Part shown: in pieces, positions 8,833-50,100 of the stretch
Position numbering within the stretch: position 1 is the stretch's first letter
Layout of the letters: each line of letters begins with the position of its first letter
Source: a virus
Taxonomy: Duplodnaviria; Caudoviricetes
Virus record (IMG/VR): IMGVR_UViG_3300021408_000080
Span: 1 to 55,452 of that record
Strand: one strand, 5' to 3'
Length of the DNA: 55,452 bases
Program-made: the position numbers and the translations under genes
The notes under the pieces: model-generated
What the model saw: only the letters and a program-made list of their open reading frames with translations
The model's database searches: none
Told to the model about the DNA's origin: nothing

Positions 8833-10335
8833 ATGGCGTCTGCTAAGCCTCATTATGCTTTAGACGCAGAGCCACCATCTGAGCGAACCCTCCCCTGTAA
8901 CGTCGAGATCGAATGGGCGCTGCTCGGCGCGCTGCTGGTCGATAACCATTGGTTCGACCGGGCGGCGCTGACGCTCAGGCCCGAGGACTTCTACGACCCG
9001 CTGCATCAGCGGATGTATGCCGAAATGGTCGGGCTCTTCGCCAAGGGCATGCACGTGACGCCCTTGACGCTGAAGGCCATGCTCGAAGGCGATGCCGGCT
9101 TGGCCGAGGTCGGCGGCATCACGTATCTCTTAGGCCTCGCGCGCTCCGCATCGGTCCTGCCAAACGTCGCCGACTACATCGCGATCCTCAAGGATCTCGA
9201 ACTGCGGCGGCATCTGATCCGGATCGGCGAGGACATCACCAACCAGGCATATGCCGCACCCTATGGCGTGGCGGCTACCGAGGTCGCCGGGCGCGCCTCA
9301 GAGGCGCTGTTCCAGGCCGCGAGTGCCGGCGAGGCAAAGCCTGCCCTGTCTCTCGATAGGGTCGCAGGGGAAGTGCTCGACATGCACGAGCGCCGCTTCA
9401 ACGGCGAGCGGTTCCCGACGGTCAAGATCGGCCTGCACACAGTGGACGCCGAGATAGGCGGATTCAGGGGCACGGACCTGGTCGGGATCGCCGGGCGGAG
9501 CGGCATGGGCAAGTCGGCGCTGCTGGGCGGCATCGCCCTCGGCGCCGCGATGCGGGGCACCCCCGTGCTCGTGTTCTCCATCGAAATGGCCAACGGGCAG
9601 TGGGCCGAGCGCACGCTGTGCGACATCGACTTCTACGAAAACGGCGGCAAGGACGCGCTTGAATACCGCAAGTTCCGCAACGGCACGTTGACTGAGGGGG
9701 AGTTCGATCGCGCCGCGCGCGCCCGCCTCCGGCTCAACAATCTACCCCTTCACATCATCGACGACGACCAGCTGAACATCGAGGATCTGAGCGCGCGCGC
9801 CAGGACATGGGCGATCGGGCGCGGGCCTCTCGGCATGATCGTGGTCGACTATGCGCAGATCGTGGCCCCGACGGACCAAGGCCGAGATCGCTCCCGCGAG
9901 CAGGAGGTCAACCACATCGCCCGCGGGCTCAAGCGCTTGGCCAAGAAGCTCGGCTGGGTGGTCGTCGCCGGAATCCAGTTGCTGAACAAGGGCATGAAGG
10001 GCACGGATGCCGACCGCCGGCCGACCGCGCAGGACATCAGGGAATCGGGGGGCATCGAGAACGAGTGCGACGTGGTCTTCGCCACCTATCGCCCCGCTTG
10101 GTATCTCGAGCAGCGCAAAGCCGAGGCCAAGGCCGCGAGCCAAGCCGAGTGGGATGCCTGGCAGGCAGACCATCAGAACGCCAAGCACAAATTCGAACTG
10201 CTGAACTTCAAGCAGCGGCACGGCCGCCGGATTGATTTCGAACTGTGGTGCGACATGGGCGCATCAGCCGTCCGCGATCAACGGCCCATCGGCAACGTCA
10301 TCACCCAAGAGGAAGCGAAAGGGCTGTTCGCATGA
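8833..10335 (+). CDS. dnaB: Replicative DNA helicase DnaB-like
   Basis: N-domain NVEIEWALLGALL/PEDFYDPLHQ; Walker A AGRSGMGKS; FSIEM; IVVDYAQ; DIRESGGIENECD. Confidence 0.95.
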   Translation: MASAKPHYALDAEPPSERTLPCNVEIEWALLGALLVDNHWFDRAALTLRPEDFYDPLHQRMYAEMVGLFAKGMHVTPLTLKAMLEGDAGLAEVGGITYLLGLARSASVLPNVADYIAILKDLELRRHLIRIGEDITNQAYAAPYGVAATEVAGRASEALFQAASAGEAKPALSLDRVAGEVLDMHERRFNGERFPTVKIGLHTVDAEIGGFRGTDLVGIAGRSGMGKSALLGGIALGAAMRGTPVLVFSIEMANGQWAERTLCDIDFYENGGKDALEYRKFRNGTLTEGEFDRAARARLRLNNLPLHIIDDDQLNIEDLSARARTWAIGRGPLGMIVVDYAQIVAPTDQGRDRSREQEVNHIARGLKRLAKKLGWVVVAGIQLLNKGMKGTDADRRPTAQDIRESGGIENECDVVFATYRPAWYLEQRKAEAKAASQAEWDAWQADHQNAKHKFELLNFKQRHGRRIDFELWCDMGASAVRDQRPIGNVITQEEAKGLFA

Positions 10336-30285: not shown

Positions 30286-31887
30286 ATGCTCCAGATCGAC
30301 CTATCCGCGCTTGGCGATTCTGAGGACCAACGCCGATACCTGAACAAGATGACGGCCGCTGGCGTCCATGGCATTGCCTCGGACGTCGACGTCCAAACGC
30401 TGGTGGCCTGGAGCGAGAGTTGGAAGCAGCGCGCATGGGCTCGTAAGCGCGCCGGCAAGCAAGTCCCCACCGATGAGCGCGAGTGGCGCCTGCTGATCTT
30501 CAAGAGCGGGCGCGGGTTCGGGAAGACCGAGGGCTTGTGCCAATGGCTGGGCCACGAAATGGCCCGCCTGCCCAACCTGATCGGCCACGCGGTCGCGCCA
30601 ACCCTGAACGACGTGCGCGGCACGCTCTTCCTCGGAAACTCAGGCTTCCAATCCCTCATCCCTCCTTCCCTGCTGTACAAGGAATCGTGGGACGAGGCCT
30701 ACGACAGCACCCACCACGAGCTATTGTTCAAGAACGGGAGCCTGATCCGCGGCTTCGGCGCCAAGGACCAAGGCGGACGGCTCCGCGGCCCGCAATGCCA
30801 TGCCGGGGTCGGTGACGAGCTCCGCGAGTGGGACCGCCCGGCGGGCAACCTCGAATTCGTCCACTCGAACATGATGCTCGGTGTTCGCCTGCCCTATCCC
30901 GATGGGACGCCGGCACGCGCGGTCTTCGGCACCACGCCGCGGCCGATCCCCTACCTGAAGAACCTCTACAAACGCCCGGACTGCATCGTCATCACCGGCA
31001 CGACGTTCGAGAACATGGAAAACCTCTCGGCTGGGTTCGTGTCCGAAGTGATGACGCTGATGGGCACGCAGCTGGGCAAGATCGAGATCCTCGGCGAGGA
31101 CATCGATAGCGAGGACTTCGGCATCTACAAGAAGTCCTGGCTGCGCCTGTGGCCAGCTGGCAAGGCGTTCCCGCAGTTCAGCTTCGTCATGCTGACCATG
31201 GACACCGCCATGGAGGAGGAGGCGCGCGACAACAAGACCGGCAAGGTGGACTACTCCGCCTGCGCCGTGCTCGGCGTCTTCAACACCAAGCAGTGCTTCA
31301 CGGCCGGCGAGCTTCTGAAGCTGGGCGTGCGGTCCAAATATGCCGTGTTGCTGTGCGATTTCTGGATGGAGCGGCTCGGCTTCCCGGAATTGCTCGAGAA
31401 GACGCGCGACACCTACCGCAAGAAGTATCAGGGCCGCTTCCCCGAGCTCGTGCTGATCGAGAACAAGGCCTCGGGCATCAGCCTGCGCCAGACCCTTCAG
31501 CGTTTCGGCGTGCCGTCCTGGCCGTTCGATCCGCACGGCCAATCCAAGATGATGCGCGCGCACGTGGCCTCGCCACTGGTCAAGCAGGGCATGTTCTTCG
31601 TCCCGGAATCAGGCCTGGCCCACCGCAAAGGGCAATTCCGCGACTGGTGCGAGCCCGTCGTGGAGCAGATGACCACCTTCGCCGGCGAGGGATCTATCGA
31701 GTTCGATGATGCTGTGGACGCCGTCACGCAGGCGCTGCTGTATCTGCAACAAACCGGTACACTGGTCGCATTGCCCCAAGGGCGCCTCTATCCCGATGCC
31801 GACGAACTCGAAGAGCAGAAGATGCGCGAAGCAACGGCGATCGCCGAGCGCGAGAAGCGTGGCAAGGTCAGTCCATACGGGAGTTGA
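30286..31887 (+). CDS. terL: Terminase large subunit
   Basis: Walker A SGRGFGKT, RLRGPQ, Walker B GVGDEL, nuclease MDTA, IENKASG, DDAVDAVTQAL. Confidence 0.95.
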   Translation: MLQIDLSALGDSEDQRRYLNKMTAAGVHGIASDVDVQTLVAWSESWKQRAWARKRAGKQVPTDEREWRLLIFKSGRGFGKTEGLCQWLGHEMARLPNLIGHAVAPTLNDVRGTLFLGNSGFQSLIPPSLLYKESWDEAYDSTHHELLFKNGSLIRGFGAKDQGGRLRGPQCHAGVGDELREWDRPAGNLEFVHSNMMLGVRLPYPDGTPARAVFGTTPRPIPYLKNLYKRPDCIVITGTTFENMENLSAGFVSEVMTLMGTQLGKIEILGEDIDSEDFGIYKKSWLRLWPAGKAFPQFSFVMLTMDTAMEEEARDNKTGKVDYSACAVLGVFNTKQCFTAGELLKLGVRSKYAVLLCDFWMERLGFPELLEKTRDTYRKKYQGRFPELVLIENKASGISLRQTLQRFGVPSWPFDPHGQSKMMRAHVASPLVKQGMFFVPESGLAHRKGQFRDWCEPVVEQMTTFAGEGSIEFDDAVDAVTQALLYLQQTGTLVALPQGRLYPDADELEEQKMREATAIAEREKRGKVSPYGS

Positions 31888-34551: not shown

Positions 34552-37257
34552 ATGGCACGATCGAGCGCCGCGCAGCGCCTTCTCCCGTCCCCCGAGGCTG
34601 AAGGCCTCGAAATCACCGAATACTTCGACATCGATGACGACCCCCAGATGCTCCGCGGCGAGATCGATGAGGATGGCTCGCTGATTGTCGACATGGGCGG
34701 CGAGGAGGAGGAAGAGGTCGACCGCGGAACGGGCGAGTTCTTCGAAAACCTGGCCGACGACGTCATCCCCGAGACCGAGCTCATGCGCATCGCCACCGAT
34801 CTTCTGATGAAGATCGATGAGGACAAGCAGGCGCGCGAGAAGCGCGACCAGCAGTACGAGGAGGGCATCCGCCGCACTGGCCTGGGCAACGACGCGCCCG
34901 GCGGCGCCACGTTCGAGGGCGCGAGCAAAGTGGTGCACCCCGGCCTGACCGAGGCCTGTATCGACGGCGAAGCGCGGCTCATGAAGGAGCTATGGCCGCC
35001 ATCAGGACCGGTCAAACCGAAGATCCTGGGCGAGGTTACCGCCGAGAAGCAGACCAAGGCCGATCGCAAAACGGCCTACATGAACCAGCAGCTGACCACG
35101 ACCATGAAGGAGGCGTTCGACACCGTCGAGAAGACGCTCACCCAGGTCATGCTCGGCGGCTCGCAGTTCATCAAGCTGTGGCAGGACCACCGTCTCGGCC
35201 GCCCGCGCATGCAGTTCGTGCCGGTCGACAAGGTCTTCCTCCAGGCGTCGGCCGACAGCCTGCAAGAGGCCGGGCGCCGCACCTTCGTCGAGACCATCAC
35301 CCAGGTGGAATACCTCCAGCGCGTGGAGTCCGGGCAATACCGCAAGGAGCGCATACCTCCGCCGGCAATGGACCCGGAGAAGACCGCGGCCCAGAAGGCG
35401 ACCGACAAGGTCGAGGGCAAGGAGGGCACGGGCCAGAACATCGACGGCGAGCGCGACATCTACGAGACGATGACGTACCTCGAAGTGTCCGACGAAATGG
35501 CGGACGCGCTCGAGCACGAGGAGCAAGGCAAGCTCTACCCGTACCTGATGACGATCGATGCCTCGTCCAAGCGCGTGCTCGCGCTGTACCGGGATTGGGA
35601 GCAGGAAGACGAAGCGCACGAGCCGATCGAGCACTACTTCGAATTCCCGATGATCCCCTGGCGCGGGGCCATGTCGATCGGCTTCTGCCAGATCATCGGC
35701 GGCCTCTCAGGCGCATCGACCGGCGCCCTGCGCGCGCTGCTCGATTCCGCGCACATCGCCAACGTCCAGGGCGGCTACATCAAGAAGGGCGCAGGCATTT
35801 CGGGCCAGAACAAGAAGCCCATGCCCGGCGAAATGCTCGAAGTCGACACCGGCATGGAGACGAAGGACATCCGCGATGTCGTCATGCCCTTCAACACCAA
35901 AGAGCCATCGACGGTGCTCTTCCAGCTGCTCGGCGCGTTGGTCGAGTCGTCCAAGGGCGTGGTGCGAACCACCCTGGACGAGGCGCCTTCCGACCGCCCG
36001 AACCCGGCTACACCGGTCGGCACGCAACTGTCGCGCGTCGAAGAGGGCCTGACGGTCTTCTCGTCCATCCACGGGCGCACCCACACGGCGTTCAATCGCC
36101 TGCTCCAAGGCTTGCACCGGCTCAACCGCCTCTACCTGCCCGAAGTGCAGCGCGTGGATCTGGAGGGCAAAGAAACCCTCATCATGCGCCGCGACTTCGA
36201 AGGGCCGTCCGACGTACAGCCGACCTCTGACCCCACGATCTACAGCGACCGCCAACGGTTCGAGCAGATCGGCGCCATCCAGCAGCGCCAGATCATGCTC
36301 AAGGGCGCCGGCATCAATATGTACAACGACCGCGAGGTGGAGCGGCGCTTCCTCAAGCTGATCAAGGTGCCCGACTTCGAGTCGCTCCTGGTCGCGGAGC
36401 CCAAGCCCAGCGAGTTGAACTCCGTCAACGAGAACGTGGCGATGGCCTTCGGGCGTCCCGTGGTCGTGTTCGCCAATCAGGATCACCTCGCGCACCTTCA
36501 GGCGCATCTGGACTTCGCCCAGTCGCCCGCGCTTGGCGGTAACCCGATCATCCAGCAGAAGTTCTTGCCCGCGCTCCTGCAACACTGCGCAGAGCACATG
36601 GTCTATCACTACGTCACGATCATGAATAACTTCGTCTCGGATGCGGCGGGCGTGCCGGCGGCGGAGCTCTACAGCCAGGATGACGAGGTCAAGAACGCCT
36701 TCGACCAGGTGCTGGCGATGGCGAGCATGCGCCTGGTCCCGGGCATCAGCATCACGTTCGAGAGGGCGCTACCGCTGCTCCAGAAGGGCATGCAGGCCCT
36801 GCAAGCTATGATGCCACCCCCGCCCATGGACCCAGCCCAGGCCGCTGCCAAGGCCGCAGAGGCCGAAACCCAGCGCCGGACGGCCGACGACGCGAGCAAG
36901 GCCGAACTCGCGGCCAAGGAACTGGAACGCAAGGGCACGAAGGACCAGACCGACGCCGCGCTCAAGGACAAGCAGATCAACACCGCTGCCTCCGTCCAGC
37001 GCGAGAAGACCGCCGCCGACATGATCAAGGCGCGCGAGGCCAATCAGAACAAGCTCACCACCACGCTGATCACGACCGACACGGACGAGGAGATCGCCGA
37101 GGGTGACCGCCTGACCCAGGAAGGGATCGCCCGTGGCAACCGCACGGCCGCGGAGATCACCGCCGAAGGCAATCGCAGGGCGAGCAAGGACACCGCCATT
37201 TCCGTGGTAAAGGCCAAACCCAAGCCAGCGGCCAGGAAACCCGGAGCCAAGAAATGA
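34552..37257 (+). CDS. Portal protein
   Basis: 901 aa after TerL; FFENLAD...GATFEGASKVVHPGLTEACID, GGLSGASTGALRALLDSAH, FSSIHGRTH; coiled-coil C-terminus. Confidence 0.9.
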   Translation: MARSSAAQRLLPSPEAEGLEITEYFDIDDDPQMLRGEIDEDGSLIVDMGGEEEEEVDRGTGEFFENLADDVIPETELMRIATDLLMKIDEDKQAREKRDQQYEEGIRRTGLGNDAPGGATFEGASKVVHPGLTEACIDGEARLMKELWPPSGPVKPKILGEVTAEKQTKADRKTAYMNQQLTTTMKEAFDTVEKTLTQVMLGGSQFIKLWQDHRLGRPRMQFVPVDKVFLQASADSLQEAGRRTFVETITQVEYLQRVESGQYRKERIPPPAMDPEKTAAQKATDKVEGKEGTGQNIDGERDIYETMTYLEVSDEMADALEHEEQGKLYPYLMTIDASSKRVLALYRDWEQEDEAHEPIEHYFEFPMIPWRGAMSIGFCQIIGGLSGASTGALRALLDSAHIANVQGGYIKKGAGISGQNKKPMPGEMLEVDTGMETKDIRDVVMPFNTKEPSTVLFQLLGALVESSKGVVRTTLDEAPSDRPNPATPVGTQLSRVEEGLTVFSSIHGRTHTAFNRLLQGLHRLNRLYLPEVQRVDLEGKETLIMRRDFEGPSDVQPTSDPTIYSDRQRFEQIGAIQQRQIMLKGAGINMYNDREVERRFLKLIKVPDFESLLVAEPKPSELNSVNENVAMAFGRPVVVFANQDHLAHLQAHLDFAQSPALGGNPIIQQKFLPALLQHCAEHMVYHYVTIMNNFVSDAAGVPAAELYSQDDEVKNAFDQVLAMASMRLVPGISITFERALPLLQKGMQALQAMMPPPPMDPAQAAAKAAEAETQRRTADDASKAELAAKELERKGTKDQTDAALKDKQINTAASVQREKTAADMIKAREANQNKLTTTLITTDTDEEIAEGDRLTQEGIARGNRTAAEITAEGNRRASKDTAISVVKAKPKPAARKPGAKK

Positions 37258-37481
37258 AACGGCTAGTCCTCTCCACCCCGCGCCCGGTAATGTCCCCGCG
37301 CATCCAGCGCTACGCGAGGATCATCTGCATGGCCCAAGGCCAGGACCCCGATAAGACGTGGCCGCCGGTGCAAGTCGGTGACGATCGTCCCAAGCGCATG
37401 TGGACCTTCCACGTCGACACCGCGATCGAGGTGCTGAAGCAGGCCGACGCCGACATCGCCAAGGACGGCGCGATCAAATGA
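37254..37481 (+). CDS. Hypothetical protein
   Basis: ATGA-coupled. Confidence 0.6.
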   Translation: MKRLVLSTPRPVMSPRIQRYARIICMAQGQDPDKTWPPVQVGDDRPKRMWTFHVDTAIEVLKQADADIAKDGAIK

Positions 37482-38020
37482 GCCGCTACCCGATCATCCC
37501 GGTTGAAATGCTCGATGAGGGCATGGTCATCGACAACTACTGGTGCGAGTGCGGCAAGGGGCCGGACGTGGCGCGCGGGCGCTTCAAGGAGTCGAACAAG
37601 CCCGACGCCGATTGGAGCGACACGCGCCGATGCGAGTGCAACCGTGATGTGGAAATGTCATCGCAGAGCTTCGAACGCTTCTACCGCCGGCTCGATACCG
37701 GCGAGGAACTGGGCGGCAGTCGCCACCCGCACAAGGTGCACGCGGATCTCCCAGCTGGCTGCGCCTACTTCCAGATCGACCCGGCCTATGCGGCCGAGCA
37801 GAGCGGACCCGACGGCAAGTGCCTGGTCGTGGTGCTGCCCGACGGCCATCACTGGTACGTCGACAGCACGTCGAGCAGCAACGGGCGATGGAAGCGGAAG
37901 GGCTCGATCCTGGACGGCACGCTGGATATCAAGCCGTCGATCCGGGTCGGCAATCCCCAGACCTACCATGGCCACGTGAACAACGGCTGGTTGGAGAGCA
38001 CGAGCGACAGCCCCTGTTAA
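37478..38020 (+). CDS. Hypothetical protein with DUF6527-like C-terminus
   Basis: RWKRKG..DGTLDIKPSIRV...YHGHVNNGWL. Confidence 0.5.
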   Translation: MSRYPIIPVEMLDEGMVIDNYWCECGKGPDVARGRFKESNKPDADWSDTRRCECNRDVEMSSQSFERFYRRLDTGEELGGSRHPHKVHADLPAGCAYFQIDPAYAAEQSGPDGKCLVVVLPDGHHWYVDSTSSSNGRWKRKGSILDGTLDIKPSIRVGNPQTYHGHVNNGWLESTSDSPC

Positions 38021-38209
38021 GCTGTGGACAATGCGCGCGCGCCGTTGCAAATGCAGGAACGCCAAGGTTTGATGCTCGCGCTGTGGCGAGCGATGACCGG
38101 CGCACTTCGGTCTAACAAAGTTGGCCCTTTGGATGCCCTTAGGCGGTAATCCCCGTCACAGCAACTTTCCTGCTATACATCCTGAGTCGACCGCCCCCAG
38201 GAGTGCCAC

Positions 38210-38395
38210 ATGGCCAAGCAATCCAATCAGCAGTCCCACCTGTCCACCGGCCGCGAAGACGTCGAGACAGGCCCGCTCAAGCAGCACCACCGCATGGCCG
38301 TCGGAGACAAGGTCAGCGGCAAGGACAATCCCAACGGCGCCACCGTCGCTTCGACCGAAAGCACGATCGCGAATGGCAAGGGCAAGAACTGGTAG
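38210..38395 (+). CDS. Hypothetical protein
   Basis: AGGAG RBS. Confidence 0.65.
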   Translation: MAKQSNQQSHLSTGREDVETGPLKQHHRMAVGDKVSGKDNPNGATVASTESTIANGKGKNW

Positions 38396-38600
38396 ACGCC
38401 TCGGGGTTGATGCCATCAATCTAAGGCTGCGCCTGGCTGTTCTGTCGGACGGATCGACCGTCCCCATCACCATCCTGATTGACGCCGACTTACTCGAGAC
38501 GGACTCCGAAGATGCCGCAGTCGCGTTCGTCGCAGGCTCAGGGGAATTCTGGTTCGCAGGCGCGATCGAAGACTACCGGGGCGGCCCGCGGCTCAATTGA
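38373..38600 (+). CDS. Hypothetical acidic protein
   Basis: VDAINLRLRLAVLSDGSTVPIT...AFVAG..WF; start uncertain. Confidence 0.5.
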   Translation: MARARTGRRLGVDAINLRLRLAVLSDGSTVPITILIDADLLETDSEDAAVAFVAGSGEFWFAGAIEDYRGGPRLN

Positions 38601-38796
38601 TATCCTGGTCCCAGAGACCGATGCCGCCTTCCTCCAACGCATCCGCCAAGCCATCCAGATTGCGCGCGACGGCGGGCGCGTCCACAATTTCATGGCGAGC
38701 GGACCAGCAGCCAACAGCCTGAACATCGAGTTCGACGTCGTCGACCGCCTCTGCGAGATCGCCGAGCGAGGCCTAACCACGAGGAGGCGCGCATGA
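38596..38796 (+). CDS. Hypothetical protein (start uncertain)
   Basis: Coding-like frame ending in ATGA overlap with next gene. Confidence 0.4.
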   Translation: MDILVPETDAAFLQRIRQAIQIARDGGRVHNFMASGPAANSLNIEFDVVDRLCEIAERGLTTRRRA

Positions 38797-39014
38797 GCCT
38801 GCACCCATCCACATTTGAGTACCTGAAGCCGACAGCCGAGCAGATCGTGCAGATGGCCAATGTCCGCGAGGCGGCCAAGGTATATGCCGACATGCTCGAC
38901 GCCGTGTTACCCGAGGGCCCGGACAAGACCTTCATCCTCCGCGCCCACCGCTCGAACGCTATGTGGGCGAACGTCTGCATCACGAGACAGCCTGACGGGA
39001 CGCCGCGCCAATGA
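38793..39014 (+). CDS. Acb2/Tad1-like helical hairpin protein (candidate nucleotide sponge)
   Basis: TFEYLKPTAEQIVQMANVREAAK...LPEGPDKTFILRAHRSNAMWANVCITR; GAGGAGG RBS. Confidence 0.6.
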   Translation: MSLHPSTFEYLKPTAEQIVQMANVREAAKVYADMLDAVLPEGPDKTFILRAHRSNAMWANVCITRQPDGTPRQ

Positions 39015-39304
39015 GCGGCAGCAGGACCATCGACTTCAGCCGCGCGCTGCTCGCGATGAAGGACGGCCACCGCGTCCAGCGCGCCGTCTGGAAGGGCGAG
39101 TGGGTCTGCCTCGGCAATGGCGGCATAATCTCGTGGGAAGAGTTCTGGAACGAGCACACCCGGATCTTCGCTTCGGGGCAAACGAACCACGAGGCCGAAT
39201 TGCTGCCCTACTTCATCATGAAGACCGCCGACGACAAGATCCAGATGGGCTGGCACCCGTCGCAATCCGACATACTCGCCGAAGATTGGCAGGTTGTGGC
39301 ATGA
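39011..39304 (+). CDS. tad2: DUF2829 / Tad2-family protein
   Basis: DFSRALLAMKDGHRVQRAVWKG...PYFIMKTADD...GWHPSQSDILAEDWQVV. Confidence 0.85.
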   Translation: MSGSRTIDFSRALLAMKDGHRVQRAVWKGEWVCLGNGGIISWEEFWNEHTRIFASGQTNHEAELLPYFIMKTADDKIQMGWHPSQSDILAEDWQVVA

Positions 39305-39570
39305 GCGCCTCGACGCAGTGTCCGCATAGCGACCTGGAGATCAACATCCACAACGTCGGGATGACGGACAGCAACATCCGCTACATGGAGGTCAAGGCGC
39401 TGTGCAAGCTGTGCCTGAAGCCCATCGCCTTCCGCGGCGCGCCCCTCGGCGTCTCGCCCATGCACCCGACCATGGCGCTCGACGGGCAAGAGATCAGGCT
39501 TCCGTTCCTGGCCGAGGGCGAAGAGTACGACGGCAAGTCCATTGGCTTCACAGGGAGAGTGATCGGATGA
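39301..39570 (+). CDS. Hypothetical Zn-binding protein
   Basis: CPH...CKLC; ATGA-coupled. Confidence 0.7.
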   Translation: MSASTQCPHSDLEINIHNVGMTDSNIRYMEVKALCKLCLKPIAFRGAPLGVSPMHPTMALDGQEIRLPFLAEGEEYDGKSIGFTGRVIG

Positions 39571-39854
39571 GCCTACCGCCCGACGGAGAGATCATCGAGC
39601 GCGCCAAGGGCATGCTCCTGACGTTCAAGGGCATGCGGCTCGGCAACGGCATGACGCAGAACATCAATATGTCGGCCGAGCGCGCGGAGCGCCTGGTGGC
39701 GCTGGCCATGCTCGGGCTCGATATCCGGGCTGAGTGGGAGCGTGAGAGCGAGCTACCCGAGGACGTGCGCGCCTGGCTCGCCCCGTTCATGGAGAAATGG
39801 GTGGAGAAGACGAACCTGTTGGTCGGCACGATCATCGAGGACAAGAAGCCATGA
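39567..39854 (+). CDS. Hypothetical protein
   Basis: ATGA-coupled. Confidence 0.6.
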   Translation: MSLPPDGEIIERAKGMLLTFKGMRLGNGMTQNINMSAERAERLVALAMLGLDIRAEWERESELPEDVRAWLAPFMEKWVEKTNLLVGTIIEDKKP

Positions 39855-40096
39855 AGCTTGAGCCCGTCCAGTCGTCGAACATCAAAGCCATAGGGCACGA
39901 GGGCAAGTCGCTCTTCGTGCAGTTCCAGTCCGGCGAAGTGTGGGAATACACGCCGATCCCCGTCCAGGTTTACGAGGAACTGATCAAGGCGAGGTCGATC
40001 GGCGCGCACTTCCACAAGTGGATTCGCTCGAACTCGGCCTACAAGAGCAAGAAGGTCGAAGGCCCCGCGGCGTCCGGACCGCCCTCTGTGGCATAG
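39851..40096 (+). CDS. KTSC-domain protein
   Basis: PVQSSNIKAIGH...LFVQFQSGEVWEY...VYEELIKARSIGAHFHKWIR. Confidence 0.9.
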   Translation: MKLEPVQSSNIKAIGHEGKSLFVQFQSGEVWEYTPIPVQVYEELIKARSIGAHFHKWIRSNSAYKSKKVEGPAASGPPSVA

Positions 40097-40131
40097 TGGC
40101 CACGGGTGCAACTGATTCGAGGCACATTTTT

Positions 40132-40206
40132 GGCGCGGTGGAGCAGTGGTAGCTCGCGACGCTCATAACGTCGAGGTCGGGGGTTCGAATCCCTCCTGCG
40201 CTCCCA
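40132..40206 (+). tRNA. tRNA with CAT anticodon (Met-type, atypical)
   Basis: Cloverleaf: acceptor GGCGCGG/CTGCGCT, D-stem GAGC/GCTC, anticodon arm CGACG-CTCATAA-CGTCG, T-arm GGGGG-TTCGAAT-CCCTC, encoded CCA. Confidence 0.93.
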
Positions 40207-40439
40207 ACTCTAAGTACATCCCGCAACAACCTTCATCGTTTTGTCTCTCGGCACTCACACGCACGAGTGGCACACTCCGGTCTTCTCAGGTGATTCGAAC
40301 CGTTGGGAGCGAGGCCATGCAGCTATCGGTGCGCGAACTGTTCGAGTTGCTGAGGCGTCGTTGTTGCCTCTGCCGCCCGAAACCCGGACACGGTCGGATC
40401 AAAACAGCGGTCATGATGTTCGGACCCCCAGGAGACGAC

Positions 40440-40760
40440 ATGGCAAAAGGTTTCATCGATCTGGACCAGACCTCGATCCCTTCAGTTCTGGACCTCAGGA
40501 ATAAGGCGGGCGAGCCCGTCACGCCCGATACACCCCCGGTTTGGACGCTCGGCGACCCGTCGATCGCATCCATCACAGTGGCCTCCGACGGCATGTCCGC
40601 CGTCTTCGCGCCGCTCGCAGTGGGCATCACCACCGTGAACGTGACCGTTGACGCCGAAATCGGCGAAGGCGTGACCGAAATGCTTCTGTCCGGCGAACTC
40701 GAAGTCACCGCTGGCGATATCGCCACGGGCGAAGTGACCTTCGGTCCGCCTGTAGACTAA
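40440..40760 (+). CDS. Ig-like (Big_2-type) domain protein
   Basis: AGGAG RBS; PVWTLGDPSIASITVASDGMSAVFAPLAVGITTVNVT; alternative in-frame upstream start (MQLSVREL). Confidence 0.65.
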   Translation: MAKGFIDLDQTSIPSVLDLRNKAGEPVTPDTPPVWTLGDPSIASITVASDGMSAVFAPLAVGITTVNVTVDAEIGEGVTEMLLSGELEVTAGDIATGEVTFGPPVD

Positions 40761-40874
40761 GCCGCCCGAGGCATGGCGACTTGCGAGCGCCGTCAGGGAA
40801 ACCTGGCGGCGCTTTCGTTTGGGGCACGATTGTACAATCGAGTACCATCACCGCGCGCGAAACGGAGAGAGACG

Positions 40875-41174
40875 GTGATTGACATACGCGAGATTGTGAA
40901 AACCTGGATGTGGGAAAACCGCGCCCAATGGCTTACCGAGGTTGCCGTTGCGCACCGTGACGGCGCTGACGAGGATAAGCTGGGGGCAAAGGCTGACGAT
41001 CTCCTCGCCCGTCTCGACGCTCTCGGGTTGGCCGTGGTGCCGAAAGAGCCGAGTGAGGAAGCAATTCGGGCGTGGTGGAAAATAGAACGTAAGCGGCCTT
41101 ATAATTCGTTCAACACGCCCACGGACTGCGGCACGGCAATGTACCGCGCCATGATCGAAGCGTCTAAGCCATGA
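40875..41174 (+). CDS. Hypothetical phage protein
   Basis: GGAG RBS plus GTG; GLAVVPKEPSEEAI...YRAMIEA. Confidence 0.65.
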   Translation: MIDIREIVKTWMWENRAQWLTEVAVAHRDGADEDKLGAKADDLLARLDALGLAVVPKEPSEEAIRAWWKIERKRPYNSFNTPTDCGTAMYRAMIEASKP

Positions 41175-41213
41175 CCAAGAAGCGCAAACGCAGGGACAAA
41201 CAAGGGTCACGGC

Positions 41214-41450
41214 TCACATCGTCCGATTGTTCCAGCGCTTGATCGCAGCGGCCTTGTAGGCGTCGGTGCCACGCCCATCGCAGGTGAGCGCGCCATCACT
41301 GACCCGCACGCCCTCATCGTGCCCGTCGTAGGTCGCGCACCGCTTGTTCACGCACACGACCGCAGCCCAAGCAGTGCCCTCGACCTCAGGATTGGTCGGC
41401 AGGATCTTCGGAAGCTTGCCGCAGAACGGGCAGGGCAGTGGTTTAGGCAC
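41214..41450 (-). CDS. Lar-family (restriction alleviation-like) Zn-finger protein
   Basis: PLPCPFCGK...VVC...C...AAIKRWNNR; GGAGG RBS. Confidence 0.7.
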   Translation of the reverse strand: MPKPLPCPFCGKLPKILPTNPEVEGTAWAAVVCVNKRCATYDGHDEGVRVSDGALTCDGRGTDAYKAAAIKRWNNRTM

Positions 41451-41706
41451 GCCGTCCTCCCGACGCGCGGCGCTTCTTCTGCTTGCTGCTGGCCACGACA
41501 ACGGGGAACGCCTTGGCCCACTTATCAAGCTCGGTCTTGAGGTAGAGCGATTGGCCGCCGCCTGGTCGCGTGCGGGCCTCAGGCCCGATGCACTGCATCG
41601 CATACCGGGCGAGCGCGTATTTCGAGACCGGGAAATAGTGTTCGGTGAGGTATGTCGCGGCTTCTTTGCGTGAGAGGTACGACCGGCTCGGTATTATTTC
41701 ACTCAC
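41443..41706 (-). CDS. Excisionase/MerR-like HTH DNA-binding protein
   Basis: YLSRKEAATYL...VSKYALARYA...GP...LYLKTELDKWA; GGAG RBS. Confidence 0.75.
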   Translation of the reverse strand: MSEIIPSRSYLSRKEAATYLTEHYFPVSKYALARYAMQCIGPEARTRPGGGQSLYLKTELDKWAKAFPVVVASSKQKKRRASGGRRA

Positions 41707-41905
41707 TGGCGCGCTCCTGCTTTGATTCGAGGCACCTACACCTCCCGGCGGAAGACTGGCGATCGACTCGCGCCGTCTCTGGTGTCGCGATGTATGTAAA
41801 TAATCCACCGCCGTTGCAAGTACATCGCAACCTATAGCGCGCAATCGCACATCTAGTGTCGTGGGGTTGCGCGCCTACTCGTATTGCCGCAACTCTCGCG
41901 CACCG

Positions 41906-47886: not shown

Positions 47887-50100
47887 ATGGCCGGCGTGTC
47901 TCTCTTCGCCGGAGTCTCCCAGGTGCCCGGTGTGGTCTTCGGCGAGGGCGTGAGCCAATCAGCCGGGGTCACGCTCGGTGGGATGGGCCTCCCAGGTGTG
48001 CCGTTCGGCAACTCGACGGTCGTGCGCAACTCCGTGGGATATGCCGAGACTGCCGCTGGGGCCCTGGTTTCGTTCCCGATCAACACGAAACGGCAGACCG
48101 ATCTCGGGCTTCTGGTCGAGGGGCCAAGGACCAATCTCCTGACGTTCTCTCAGGCCTTCAGCAATGCCGCGTGGGTTAGCGGCGCGACGCAACTCACCAT
48201 TACGGACAACAACGCGGTCGGCCCTGACGGCACAATGACCGCAAGTCGCTGGGCGAACACGTCGACCTCCAACGCTCATCGCGCGCGGCAGGATAATCTC
48301 TCCGTCACGAACGGGTCGAGATATACGCTGTGGTGCATCGTCAGGATGGGGACGCACCGCTATCTCCAACTTGTTCCGTCGAGCGTTGGTTTCGCAGCAG
48401 GCCTCTATGCAAATTATGATTTGCAAAACGGCGTTGTGACCGCGGTTGGAACTGGCCAATCCCTTTTCAGTTCCGACATCGGCATCACGTCCTTAACCGG
48501 CGGCTACTATCTCTGCTGGCTGACGGTAACGGCGAATCTCACGACGGCCGTTTCAAACGCCGCGTTTAGCTTGCAGAACAGTCCTACGGCCTCGCAGCTG
48601 AACGCCTATGCTGGGACCGCGACCACGGTCTTTGTGTGGGCCGCCGGCGTGGCGCCTGGATTGGTCTCAGCCGTGCCGGTTCTCACGGTGGCTTCGGCGG
48701 TCACGACGGCGGCGGATGTCGTCACCTATGCGCGGACGGGAACGCCAGCTGGAACGGTCGTTATCGAGGCTATCGCCCCACTCACCAACGCTGTGGCGAA
48801 CGTCCTCTGGGAGTGGCACGACGCCTCGGAGAACAATCGTCACCGGATCGAGCGCAACACGAGCCGGGAGGTCCACTACATCGTCACCTCTGGCGGCGTT
48901 GGCGTTGTCGATCTGAATCTCGGTATCGCGGTGAACGGCGGCAGCTTCAAGGTCGCTGCGGCATGGGCGCTGAACGATTATGCCGCCTCGCTGAACGGGG
49001 AGGCGTGCCTGACGGATGCCGCGGGGGCGCTTCCTGTCGGGCTCACCACAATCCAGTTCGGCGGGGACAGTGCCGGCAACTACTTGGGCTCCTATATCGC
49101 GTCCGCGCTCATCTACGCGGCGCGTCAGTCAAACGCAGAGCTTGAGGCAGATGCGCTCTATCCGCCGGCGCCGCCGCCACTGCCTGCGGTCAAGTCAATC
49201 CTCATCGATGCCGACGACGATTCCGACATTGACGACGCGATCGACTCGCTGACTGCCCTCGCGCTTGAAAAGGGCGGAGAGTGCACCCTGCCTGGGTATT
49301 GCGTGACGTCGTCCAACGCCGGGGCTGCTGGATGCCAATATGCCTTCCTGAACTTTTACGGCCGGACGGCCATCCCAATGGGGCAAAACGTCAACGATCT
49401 CGGGACGTCGACCAGCGTATATATCGCCCCTGTGATCGCGAACTACGGCGTTGCCGGACACGTGACGGCGGCCGACTTTGAGTACGGGGTCCAGACCTAT
49501 CGGCGCACCCTTTGGGACGCGCCGGACGGAAGCGTCCCGATTATCGTCACCGGCGGCGGCTCGACTCTCGCGCTCACGGCGAGAACGGGGCGCACTGCGG
49601 CCGTGCCCCTGAACGGCGTGGACCTCATAAATCGCAAGGCGAAGGAAATCTGGATCGTCGCCGGCAACTGGCCGTCCGGCGCTGGCGTCTCGGATATGAC
49701 CAACACGCGCCTTGCCTACCAATGGGTTTTCGACAACCTCAACGTGCCGATCATGATCTTCGGCGTCGATCAGGTCGGAGCGATCAATACCGGCGGGAAT
49801 GTGATGGTTGGGCTTGCGGCGAACAATCCTGTTCGGTTCGCCTGGGAGACGTATTTCGGAGGATCGAACCCGGCCAACACACGCCCCGGCTGGGCGCAAC
49901 CTGCCATCCTCGCCGCGGTGCGTGGCATGTCAGGGCTTCTTAGCATCACGGGCGCGAACGGTTACGCGACCGTCAGTCCGACCACTGGCGCCACGCAGTG
50001 GAACGCGACGCCGAACCGGAAGCACAACTATCTCGGCAAGGTCATGTCGGACGCGAACTTCGTGACGACAATCAATGCACTGATCGCGCCCGGCCCATGA
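47887..50100 (+). CDS. Spike/fibre-like protein with lectin-like domains and C-terminal nucleoside-hydrolase-like domain
   Basis: GLLVEGPRTNLL..PDGTMTA; LamG-like segment; Pro linker; ILIDADDDSDIDDA...FYGRTAIPMG...YRRTL..PDGSVPIIVTG...RPGWAQPAILAAVRG. Confidence 0.75.
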   Translation: MAGVSLFAGVSQVPGVVFGEGVSQSAGVTLGGMGLPGVPFGNSTVVRNSVGYAETAAGALVSFPINTKRQTDLGLLVEGPRTNLLTFSQAFSNAAWVSGATQLTITDNNAVGPDGTMTASRWANTSTSNAHRARQDNLSVTNGSRYTLWCIVRMGTHRYLQLVPSSVGFAAGLYANYDLQNGVVTAVGTGQSLFSSDIGITSLTGGYYLCWLTVTANLTTAVSNAAFSLQNSPTASQLNAYAGTATTVFVWAAGVAPGLVSAVPVLTVASAVTTAADVVTYARTGTPAGTVVIEAIAPLTNAVANVLWEWHDASENNRHRIERNTSREVHYIVTSGGVGVVDLNLGIAVNGGSFKVAAAWALNDYAASLNGEACLTDAAGALPVGLTTIQFGGDSAGNYLGSYIASALIYAARQSNAELEADALYPPAPPPLPAVKSILIDADDDSDIDDAIDSLTALALEKGGECTLPGYCVTSSNAGAAGCQYAFLNFYGRTAIPMGQNVNDLGTSTSVYIAPVIANYGVAGHVTAADFEYGVQTYRRTLWDAPDGSVPIIVTGGGSTLALTARTGRTAAVPLNGVDLINRKAKEIWIVAGNWPSGAGVSDMTNTRLAYQWVFDNLNVPIMIFGVDQVGAINTGGNVMVGLAANNPVRFAWETYFGGSNPANTRPGWAQPAILAAVRGMSGLLSITGANGYATVSPTTGATQWNATPNRKHNYLGKVMSDANFVTTINALIAPGP

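Follow-up and report, generated by a model that had tools for sequence, protein, structure and literature searches.

Two putative immune-signal sponges, an Acb2-type hairpin protein and a Tad2 homologue, encoded in a coupled accessory gene chain of an uncultivated tailed phage

The IMG/VR virus record IMGVR_UViG_3300021408_000080 (55,452 bp, linear, estimated to be 96% complete and with a GC content of 61-66% along its length; hereafter, the window) is a nearly complete genome, of about 55 kb, of an uncultivated tailed phage. A chain of small genes lies directly after its portal gene, on the same strand. In this chain, a 73-amino-acid (aa) helical-hairpin protein of the Acb2 family (38793..39014, +) is followed by a 97-aa Tad2 homologue (DUF2829/PF11195; 39011..39304, +), both of them putative signal sponges, and then by an 89-aa all-beta protein with a CPH...CxxC motif (39301..39570, +), a 95-aa orphan protein (39567..39854, +), an 81-aa KTSC-domain protein (39851..40096, +) and a tRNA-Met with the anticodon CAT (40132..40206, +). 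Genes are referred to below by their first position. The locus is a mosaic slot of small accessory genes, bounded by the portal gene and by the conserved structural genes that come next, and we put at roughly 70% the probability that the two sponge-family proteins encoded in it serve to remove host immune signals.

Among the open reading frames (ORFs) called with translation table 11, the stop of each gene overlaps the start of the next one, at the pairs 38796/38793, 39014/39011, 39304/39301, 39570/39567, and 39854/39851. Reading of the sequence confirmed five consecutive ATGA overlaps of 4 bp, which link 38512, 38793, 39011, 39301, 39567, and 39851. The GC content of third codon positions (GC3) is 0.8-1.0, and its frame changes exactly at the ATGA junctions, so that 38793, 39011, 39301, 39567, and 39851 can all be regarded as real genes, including the orphan 39567 with its GC3 of 0.85-0.95. 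The ATGA-coupled chain from 38793 to 39851 with a tRNA at its end, noticed in a preliminary description of this DNA, was thus confirmed by the ORF table, the sequence, GC3, and ARAGORN. A scan for promoters and terminators, which was not built for this host, returned none within the chain, and an NCBIfam search with 10 ORFs gave zero matches. When the chain region was compared by blastn with 50,697 phage records, the tRNA was the sole match, and no cultured phage was similar in DNA.

The assignment of 39011 to DUF2829/Tad2, proposed in the preliminary description, was borne out by both family and structure libraries. The protein matched PF11195 (Tad2-like) over residues 8-96 with an E-value of 5.2e-20 and 72.2 bits, the cut-off being 25, and reached 71.1 bits when the genome was scanned. 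Solved Tad2 proteins were matched over residues 5-96, namely ModTad2 (9eib, 2.1e-10; 8v3e, 2.3e-10), SptTad2 (8wjd, 1.2e-8), and SPO1 Gp34.65 (8sme, 2.2e-8), while the match to AcrIIA7/HgmTad2 (8kbi) covered the C-terminal 35 residues only. The homology to Tad2 is thus full-length and above the Pfam cut-off, and the C-terminal S-Q-[ST]-D...E-D-W is kept. In HgmTad2, glycocyclic ADP-ribose (gcADPR) is contacted by W21/N22/G23, W87, S90, T92, and D93, as described by Li et al. (bioRxiv 10.1101/2023.11.15.567273). The C-terminal W-x-x-S-Q-S-D of 39011 aligns with the contact stretch W87...S90-Q-T92-D93, with a serine in place of the threonine. The differences concern the insertion between beta2 and beta5, whose length lies between those of ModTad2 and SPO1 Tad2 (shorter) and that of SptTad2 (longer), and the ligand-contacting loop, where 39011 carries W-K-G instead of the W-N-G present in all solved Tad2s of the printed alignments. 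On its sequence, 39011 is clearly a member of the Tad2 family with one altered contact residue. It would most likely form a tetramer trapping Thoeris-type signals derived from ADP-ribose, and possibly others.

For 38793, previously described as Acb2/Tad1-like, the connection to Acb2 holds at the level of the family. The protein has 829 homologues at E<=0.01, most of them precomputed as PF24729 (Acb2_Tad1_hairpin), and an exhaustive profile search placed 512 clusters (50% identity) in its family at E<=1e-3. PF24729 was matched by 31 of 36 diverse family members, the best at 3.9e-14, and 38793 itself matched PHROG 1454 at 1.5e-9. The wider family profile had Acb2 homolog 43 (9ptq, E 5.2e-4) as its top match in the PDB, and an hhalign comparison of the family with an alignment that combined T4 Vs.4 with two strong PF24729 proteins gave a probability of 87% (E 4e-6). 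A tblastn search with 38793 found 12 records at 30-34% identity, of which 11 are annotated as hypothetical and one as a putative phosphomannomutase.

The AlphaFold2 model of 38793 (predicted local distance difference test, pLDDT, of 93.5) is a helical hairpin with helices at residues 5-11, 15-38, and 43-64. Vs.4 was its top match in Foldseek, and in a VIA-align comparison with 48,161 chains, Vs.4, PaMx33 Acb2, and Acb2 homolog 43 (Acb2_43) ranked 2, 10, and 11 with Z of 6.7, 6.3, and 6.3, respectively. Folded as four copies, the protein reached an interface score (ipSAE) of 0.78 versus 0.00 for the best control, with a contact agreement of at least 84% and a pLDDT of at least 81. This measure had been calibrated on two-copy runs with different alignments, where 20 of 30 solved homo-pairs and 1 of 23 single chains scored high enough to pass. 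Because solved Acb2 hexamers exist, the four-copy result may partly reflect likeness to them; it supports self-association in the model, not specifically a hexamer.

Cyclic dinucleotides are held in PaMx33 Acb2 by Y11, through stacking on the base, and by K26, which bridges their phosphates; both residues are described as highly conserved (Cao et al., PMC10312549). The hhalign alignment puts Y10 of 38793 on Y8 of Vs.4 and R25 on K23; each of the 21 close homologues has this tyrosine and this arginine. From their equal 15-residue spacing and the stated conservation, we infer that Y8/K23 of Vs.4 are the equivalents of Y11/K26 of PaMx33. The helix KTFILRAHRSNAMWAN, which the preliminary description had called divergent, is not so within its own family: it is the most conserved stretch of the 38793 subfamily, with K45, R50, H52, R53, N55, A56, M57, W58, and N60 invariant in all 21 close homologues, and its M-W-A is also found in T4 Vs.4. 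The preliminary description took the supposed divergence as a possible sign of a different ligand; the positions of the cA3 pocket do differ from those of PaMx33 Acb2 (see below), but the tyrosine and the basic residue of the dinucleotide pocket are retained, so that the sequence speaks for neither side. Given the invariant Y10 and R25, their alignment with Vs.4, and a conserved helix sharing M-W-A, 38793 most likely binds a nucleotide-type ligand in its N-terminal pocket. We envisage a homo-oligomer, as the most likely state, that would trap a nucleotide alarm signal between the N-terminal regions by means of Tyr10 and Arg25.

In comparison with the solved Acb2 proteins of PaMx33 (8h2j) and T4 (Vs.4, 7uq2), 38793 shares the small helical hairpin, the PF24729 signal, the predicted self-association, an N-terminal tyrosine and a basic residue 15 positions apart (Y10/R25, Y8/K23 in Vs.4, and Y11/K26 in PaMx33), and the M-W-A motif of helix 2. 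It differs in being shorter (73 versus 88-94 aa), in having arginine for lysine, in a subfamily-specific R-A-H-R-S-N stretch, and in giving no direct sequence match. Its nearest solved relative by profile, Acb2_43, is a Thoeris-inhibiting sponge of 3' cyclic ADP-ribose (3'cADPR; Hadary et al. 2025, bioRxiv 10.1101/2025.08.24.671296). The two proteins are of similar size (76 residues in the sequence library and 69 in the solved chain for Acb2_43) and share the L-P-x-G-x-x-K hairpin turn, with K19 of Acb2_43 corresponding to R25.

Several results weigh against placing 38793 among the sponges. On its own, the protein scored 3.2e-5 and 24.5 bits with PF24729, below the curated cut-off of 27, and PDB sequence searches with it and with its close-family profile returned no solved Acb2 or Tad1. 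The Foldseek match to Vs.4 had an E-value of 1, and a Z of 6.3-6.9 is the ordinary background of helical hairpins, rank 1 being taken by an unrelated chain. The pocket for cyclic triadenylate (cA3) in PaMx33 Acb2 is formed by R67 and T74, which vary among homologues and are equated with D61 and T68 of Vs.4 in the account of Cao et al. (PMC10312549); in the alignment, 38793 has P43 and R50 at these positions. Since T4 Acb2 also lacks cA3 binding, the differing trinucleotide-pocket residues do not exclude 38793 from the Acb2 family. The contacts of Acb2_43 with 3'cADPR are given as T4, H5, L6, V7, K19, and K55 (Hadary et al., bioRxiv 10.1101/2025.08.24.671296). K19 is the only one aligned with a similar residue (R25), and T4, H5, L6, V7, and K55 fall on Y10, L11, K12, P13, and V61; with these contacts not conserved, the same ligand should not be assumed for 38793. 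On the sequence comparisons, membership in the Acb2/PF24729 superfamily is supported for the family and borderline for the single sequence. In structure, the predicted helical hairpin fits the superfamily, with the three Acb2 chains ranked 2, 10, and 11 of 48,161 but at Z values inside the helical background.

The adjacency of two sponge families, claimed in the preliminary description, therefore stands, firmly for Tad2 and at the family level for the Acb2-type gene, and we regard 38793 and 39011, on the basis of homology, as new members of known sponge families. The AntiDefenseFinder study (PMC11724313) gives 17.8% as the share of anti-defence systems in phages that lie within 1 kb of one another. 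Like the anti-defence islands described there (Tesson et al. 2024), the locus combines two genes of anti-defence families less than 1 kb apart with a variable region; it differs in that both belong to sponge families and lie in one ATGA-coupled chain between structural genes, and in that the island is deduced from homology only. Adjacent PF24729-type and PF11195 genes in a region that varies against one relative would thus qualify as an anti-defence island.

This relative, the only close one, is IMGVR_UViG_3300021090_000723 (L001/L081 in our numbering of loci), whose portal is 89% identical at the amino acid level. At 104,903 bp, the record is about twice as long as the window and could represent a concatemer or a prophage embedded in host sequence. 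It has homologues of 37254, 38210, 38512, the Acb2-type gene (85% identical), the KTSC gene (77%, in the same place beside the tRNA), the tRNA-Met (82.5% over that stretch), and the genes from 41469 onward. There, the KTSC gene comes directly after the Acb2-type gene, again with an ATGA overlap. The window has an extra 840 bp, comprising Tad2, 39301, and 39567 (39011-39854) with ATGA at both edges, which is absent from the relative; the two records also differ over 37478-38036 and 40208-41469. As the sole close relative lacks these three genes, the chain region can be considered a variable accessory slot, and the sequences indicate that Tad2 and the two small genes after it make up a cassette of 840 bp whose gain or loss took place precisely at the ATGA junctions, in a direction that a single relative does not give.

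Within the cassette, 39301 has no Pfam family and has 25 homologues at 48-66% identity. C7, P8, H9, C35, and C38 are invariant in 25 sequences of the family, and zinc binding, suggested beforehand, is a reasonable reading of this Cys/His motif, from which the metal itself is deduced. The AlphaFold2 model is all-beta (pLDDT 85) and matched nothing in the PDB, either by Foldseek (best E 0.35) or by VIA-align over the 48,161 chains (best Z 3.3), nor in BFVD (best E 0.26). Its Atlas neighbours are unnamed clusters only, mostly viral and some bacterial. Some of the homologues stem from assemblies of Phenylobacterium and Rhizomicrobium, a hint that the phage infects alphaproteobacteria, which we regard as its probable hosts.

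The gene neighbourhood of the 39301 family was evaluated in the 12 contexts that had sufficient DNA on the upstream side (the window, L083-L086, L089, L091-L094, L132, and L133). L082 and L090 were left out for having less than 170 nt upstream, L087 as a spurious 37-residue match, and L131 as a duplicate of L093. A single-member scan of the genome collection had given 3 loci including the spurious L087, and further viral scans added two new contexts and the L093 duplicate. A sponge-family gene lies directly upstream, with an ATGA overlap, in 3 of the 12 contexts: Tad2 in the window and PF24729 genes in L086 (1.9e-19) and L094 (8.8e-15). Hadary et al. (bioRxiv 10.1101/2025.08.24.671296) counted 9,141 Acb2 and 7,492 Tad2 proteins in a set of about 32 million from phages, which puts the naive background at about 5e-4 sponge genes for each phage protein; 3 of 12 is far above it, although this is rough arithmetic on contexts that were not randomly sampled. 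Because the family is found repeatedly directly behind sponge genes, 39301 is the best further counter-defence candidate of the chain and, by guilt by association at the sequence level, a fair one. As a separate observation, a small protein family with a D-x-x-H-H-A-L-G-R-P motif (by eye) and no Pfam family is encoded downstream of 39301-family genes at L091:4245-4655 and at about 4270-4700 of L085.

For 39567, no Pfam family was found, a search of 5.8 billion proteins gave 0 homologues except the protein itself, and its Atlas matches were all below 0.8 and none usable; with no homologue, nothing can be argued for its role. The KTSC gene and the tRNA, both named in the preliminary description, were recovered by PF13619 (1.2e-13, 51 bits, cut-off 25) and by ARAGORN. 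KTSC is described as a DNA-binding domain (Iyer et al., PMC9503650) and as an RNA-binding domain possibly supporting translation (Iyer et al., PMC7824862). This literature, along with the conserved place beside the tRNA, fits a nucleic-acid or translation role better than an immune one, and we consider the former more likely. By eye, the tRNA-Met has a G1-U72 pair and an anticodon stem without the G/C triplet and is therefore not initiator-like. The KTSC gene and the tRNA would be older residents of the slot, probably with nucleic-acid or translation functions.

The neighbourhoods of homologous genes in other phages bear on these readings. Homologues of 38793 were followed in 80 IMG/VR loci, where 76 downstream and 72 upstream ORFs could be evaluated as immediate neighbours. 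The gene stood in an unrelated background in all 80 loci, often among replication genes, and Tad2 was its immediate neighbour in 0 of 76 cases downstream and 0 of 72 upstream, which adds to the points against the sponge reading of the locus. The window's Tad2, 39301, and 39567 were each present in 0 of the 80 loci, and its portal in 2. Downstream neighbours included KTSC (3) and DUF6496 (3), and upstream neighbours AAA_24 (7) and KTSC (3); the six KTSC neighbours represent no more than three lineages, the window's own relative being one. Of these lineages (L006/L007, L018/L021/L022, and L001), two have the KTSC gene downstream of the Acb2-type gene and one has it upstream, and the KTSC sequences are divergent; a functional link or a shared accessory slot may be behind this. 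Among 35 other Tad2 loci, a PF24729 gene was found upstream of Tad2 in two (about 950 nt away in L099, 2.3e-11; about 300 nt in L111, 5.3e-16), so the pairing of an Acb2 hairpin with Tad2 recurs but is not the rule. That the whole cassette travels together was rejected, with the 39301 family and 39567 each in 0 of these 35 loci.

On such grounds, 38793 could be viewed as a small phage protein of another role (DNA metabolism, for instance, or that of a structural adaptor) which is merely hairpin-shaped and carries a distant Acb2 signal; in that case, anti-defence would fall to Tad2 alone, and the supposed island would consist of a single sponge gene amid ordinary small genes of the phage. The close family of 38793 is indeed unusually uniform for anti-defence, the best 120 of its 829 homologues being 71-86% identical, while Hadary et al. 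(bioRxiv 10.1101/2025.08.24.671296) characterise sponges as short proteins of high divergence. Its neighbours elsewhere, mostly replication genes (AAA_24, PD-(D/E)XK nuclease, DNA polymerase A), its sub-threshold Pfam score, and its structural Z inside the helical background point the same way. These are opposed by the PF24729 matches across the family, the profile match to Acb2_43, the hhalign result with its invariant tyrosine and basic positions, the placing of all three Acb2 representatives within the top 11 of 48,161 chains, and a self-association prediction that passes its controls. Known sponge genes also occur among early or replication genes, so this location is no argument against a sponge role, and we find it unlikely that 38793 is something other than an immune sponge. 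For 39011, the alternative concerns the target: rather than a Thoeris sponge, it might be an AcrIIA7-type anti-CRISPR or a sponge for a cyclic dinucleotide, cyclic UMP (cUMP), or N7 cyclic ADP-ribose (N7-cADPR). AcrIIA7/HgmTad2 chains are found among its PDB matches, and AntiDefenseFinder handles Tad2 and AcrIIA7 as one family (PMC11724313). Moreover, Tad2 homologues vary widely in the signals they bind, the tested ones inhibiting CBASS, Pycsar, and three Thoeris types in differing combinations (Hadary et al., bioRxiv 10.1101/2025.08.24.671296). The lysine that replaces the ligand-contacting asparagine of W-N-G also favours this alternative, as does the insertion of intermediate length. However, the best full-length matches of 39011 are the Thoeris-inhibiting ModTad2 and SPO1 Tad2, AcrIIA7 aligns only with the C-terminal end, and Li et al. 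(bioRxiv 10.1101/2023.11.15.567273) report a conserved gcADPR site for about 99% of Tad2 proteins. A target other than Thoeris is a possibility that we take seriously but consider rather improbable, and a Thoeris-type sponge remains our preferred reading of 39011.

The unassigned neighbours of the two sponge genes had been put forward as candidates for new immune antagonists; among them, 39301 alone gains independent support. An alternative account would make 39301, 39567, KTSC, and the tRNA unrelated cargo with no role in immune evasion, with the adjacency of 39301 to sponge genes arising from shared insertion hot spots and operon architecture, and we lean slightly toward it. In 9 of the 12 contexts, 39301-family genes have no sponge-family gene directly upstream and are instead preceded by ASCH genes (by Pfam in L085, by eye in L083), KOW-like, ParB-like, or no-family genes, and members also stand beside terminase or capsid genes. 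The family is missing from all 35 other Tad2 loci and has no structural match to known inhibitors; KTSC is described as nucleic-acid binding, and 39567 is an orphan. What speaks for a shared role is that in 3 of 12 contexts the sponge gene is immediately upstream with an ATGA overlap, that two sponge folds are involved, that the 39301 homologues of these three contexts are divergent (42-61% identity), and that the background, with the reservations given above, is low.

The remainder of the slot is made up of smaller or less certain genes. Elsewhere in the window, PHROG matches identify a DnaB-like helicase (8833-10335), the large terminase (30286-31887), the portal (34552-37257), and a tail protein (47887-50100). 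The first small gene past the portal (37254..37481, +) encodes a 75-aa protein of no family (no Pfam, PHROG, or NCBIfam match) with an in-frame GC3 of 0.82-0.85 and 71% aa identity in the relative. It is followed by a 180-aa protein with a Cys-rich N-terminal part (37478..38020, +; GC3 0.74-0.95), which itself has zero Pfam matches and is a weak relative of a DUF6527 protein: the post-portal slot of the relative carries a DUF6527 gene (L081:7445-7855; PF20137, 2.2e-17), to which the window's protein is 32% identical over 93 aa. The three further small genes reported upstream of 38793 are present. The 61-aa hydrophilic protein of 38210..38395 (+) has a GC3 of 0.87 and 72% aa identity in the relative. 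A possible 75-aa ORF at 38373..38600 (+), the weakest gene call of the chain, is supported by GC3 alone (0.62-0.75 in frame 0 over 38370-38500), was not found in the relative, and has no family match. The third, 38512..38796 (+), encodes 94 aa (105 aa from a TTG at 38479), its stop overlapping the start of 38793; the relative matches its C-terminal 68 aa with 69% identity, and its Pfam match is at chance level only.

Beyond the tRNA, the ORF 40146-40760 (+) has a C-terminal part that looks Ig-like (Big-type) by eye, with Pfam matches at chance level, and is not shared with the relative. A minus-strand ORF at 41214-41603, just downstream of a conserved small gene (41443-41850, -) that by eye seems to encode a DNA-binding regulator, has a sub-threshold match to the restriction-alleviation protein Lar in its C-terminal half (PF14354, 7.8e-5, 23.3 bits versus a cut-off of 28.6). 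The Lar-like part falls inside 40208-41469, which has no DNA match to the relative; it may be a counter-defence gene or a mere zinc-ribbon resemblance.

By binding their signals, the two sponges would keep host effectors of the CBASS or Thoeris type silent. A bolder extension, which we offer as a tentative and rather doubtful one, is that the CPH...CxxC family of 39301 may be a new counter-defence family, either a sponge or an inhibitor of signalling defence, co-translated with two unrelated sponge folds, and that the R-A-H-R-S-N subfamily of Acb2-type proteins, abundant in environmental phages, may sequester a signal not yet assigned to Acb2.

That sponge genes exist and that anti-defence genes cluster is already known in general. 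It was by way of sponge proteins that new bacterial immune signals came to light. Among the sponge homologues tested by Hadary et al. (bioRxiv 10.1101/2025.08.24.671296), which included 46 Acb2 proteins, about a quarter are reported to lack a known target. Here, the locus offers a large, uniform, and apparently uncharacterised Acb2-type subfamily that keeps the tyrosine and the basic residue of the dinucleotide pocket and differs elsewhere, together with a Tad2 that has an altered ligand-contact residue. It also offers a natural pair of phages, with and without a three-gene cassette, and a small protein family of no known fold whose genes are joined to sponge genes by translational coupling in three settings independent of one another.

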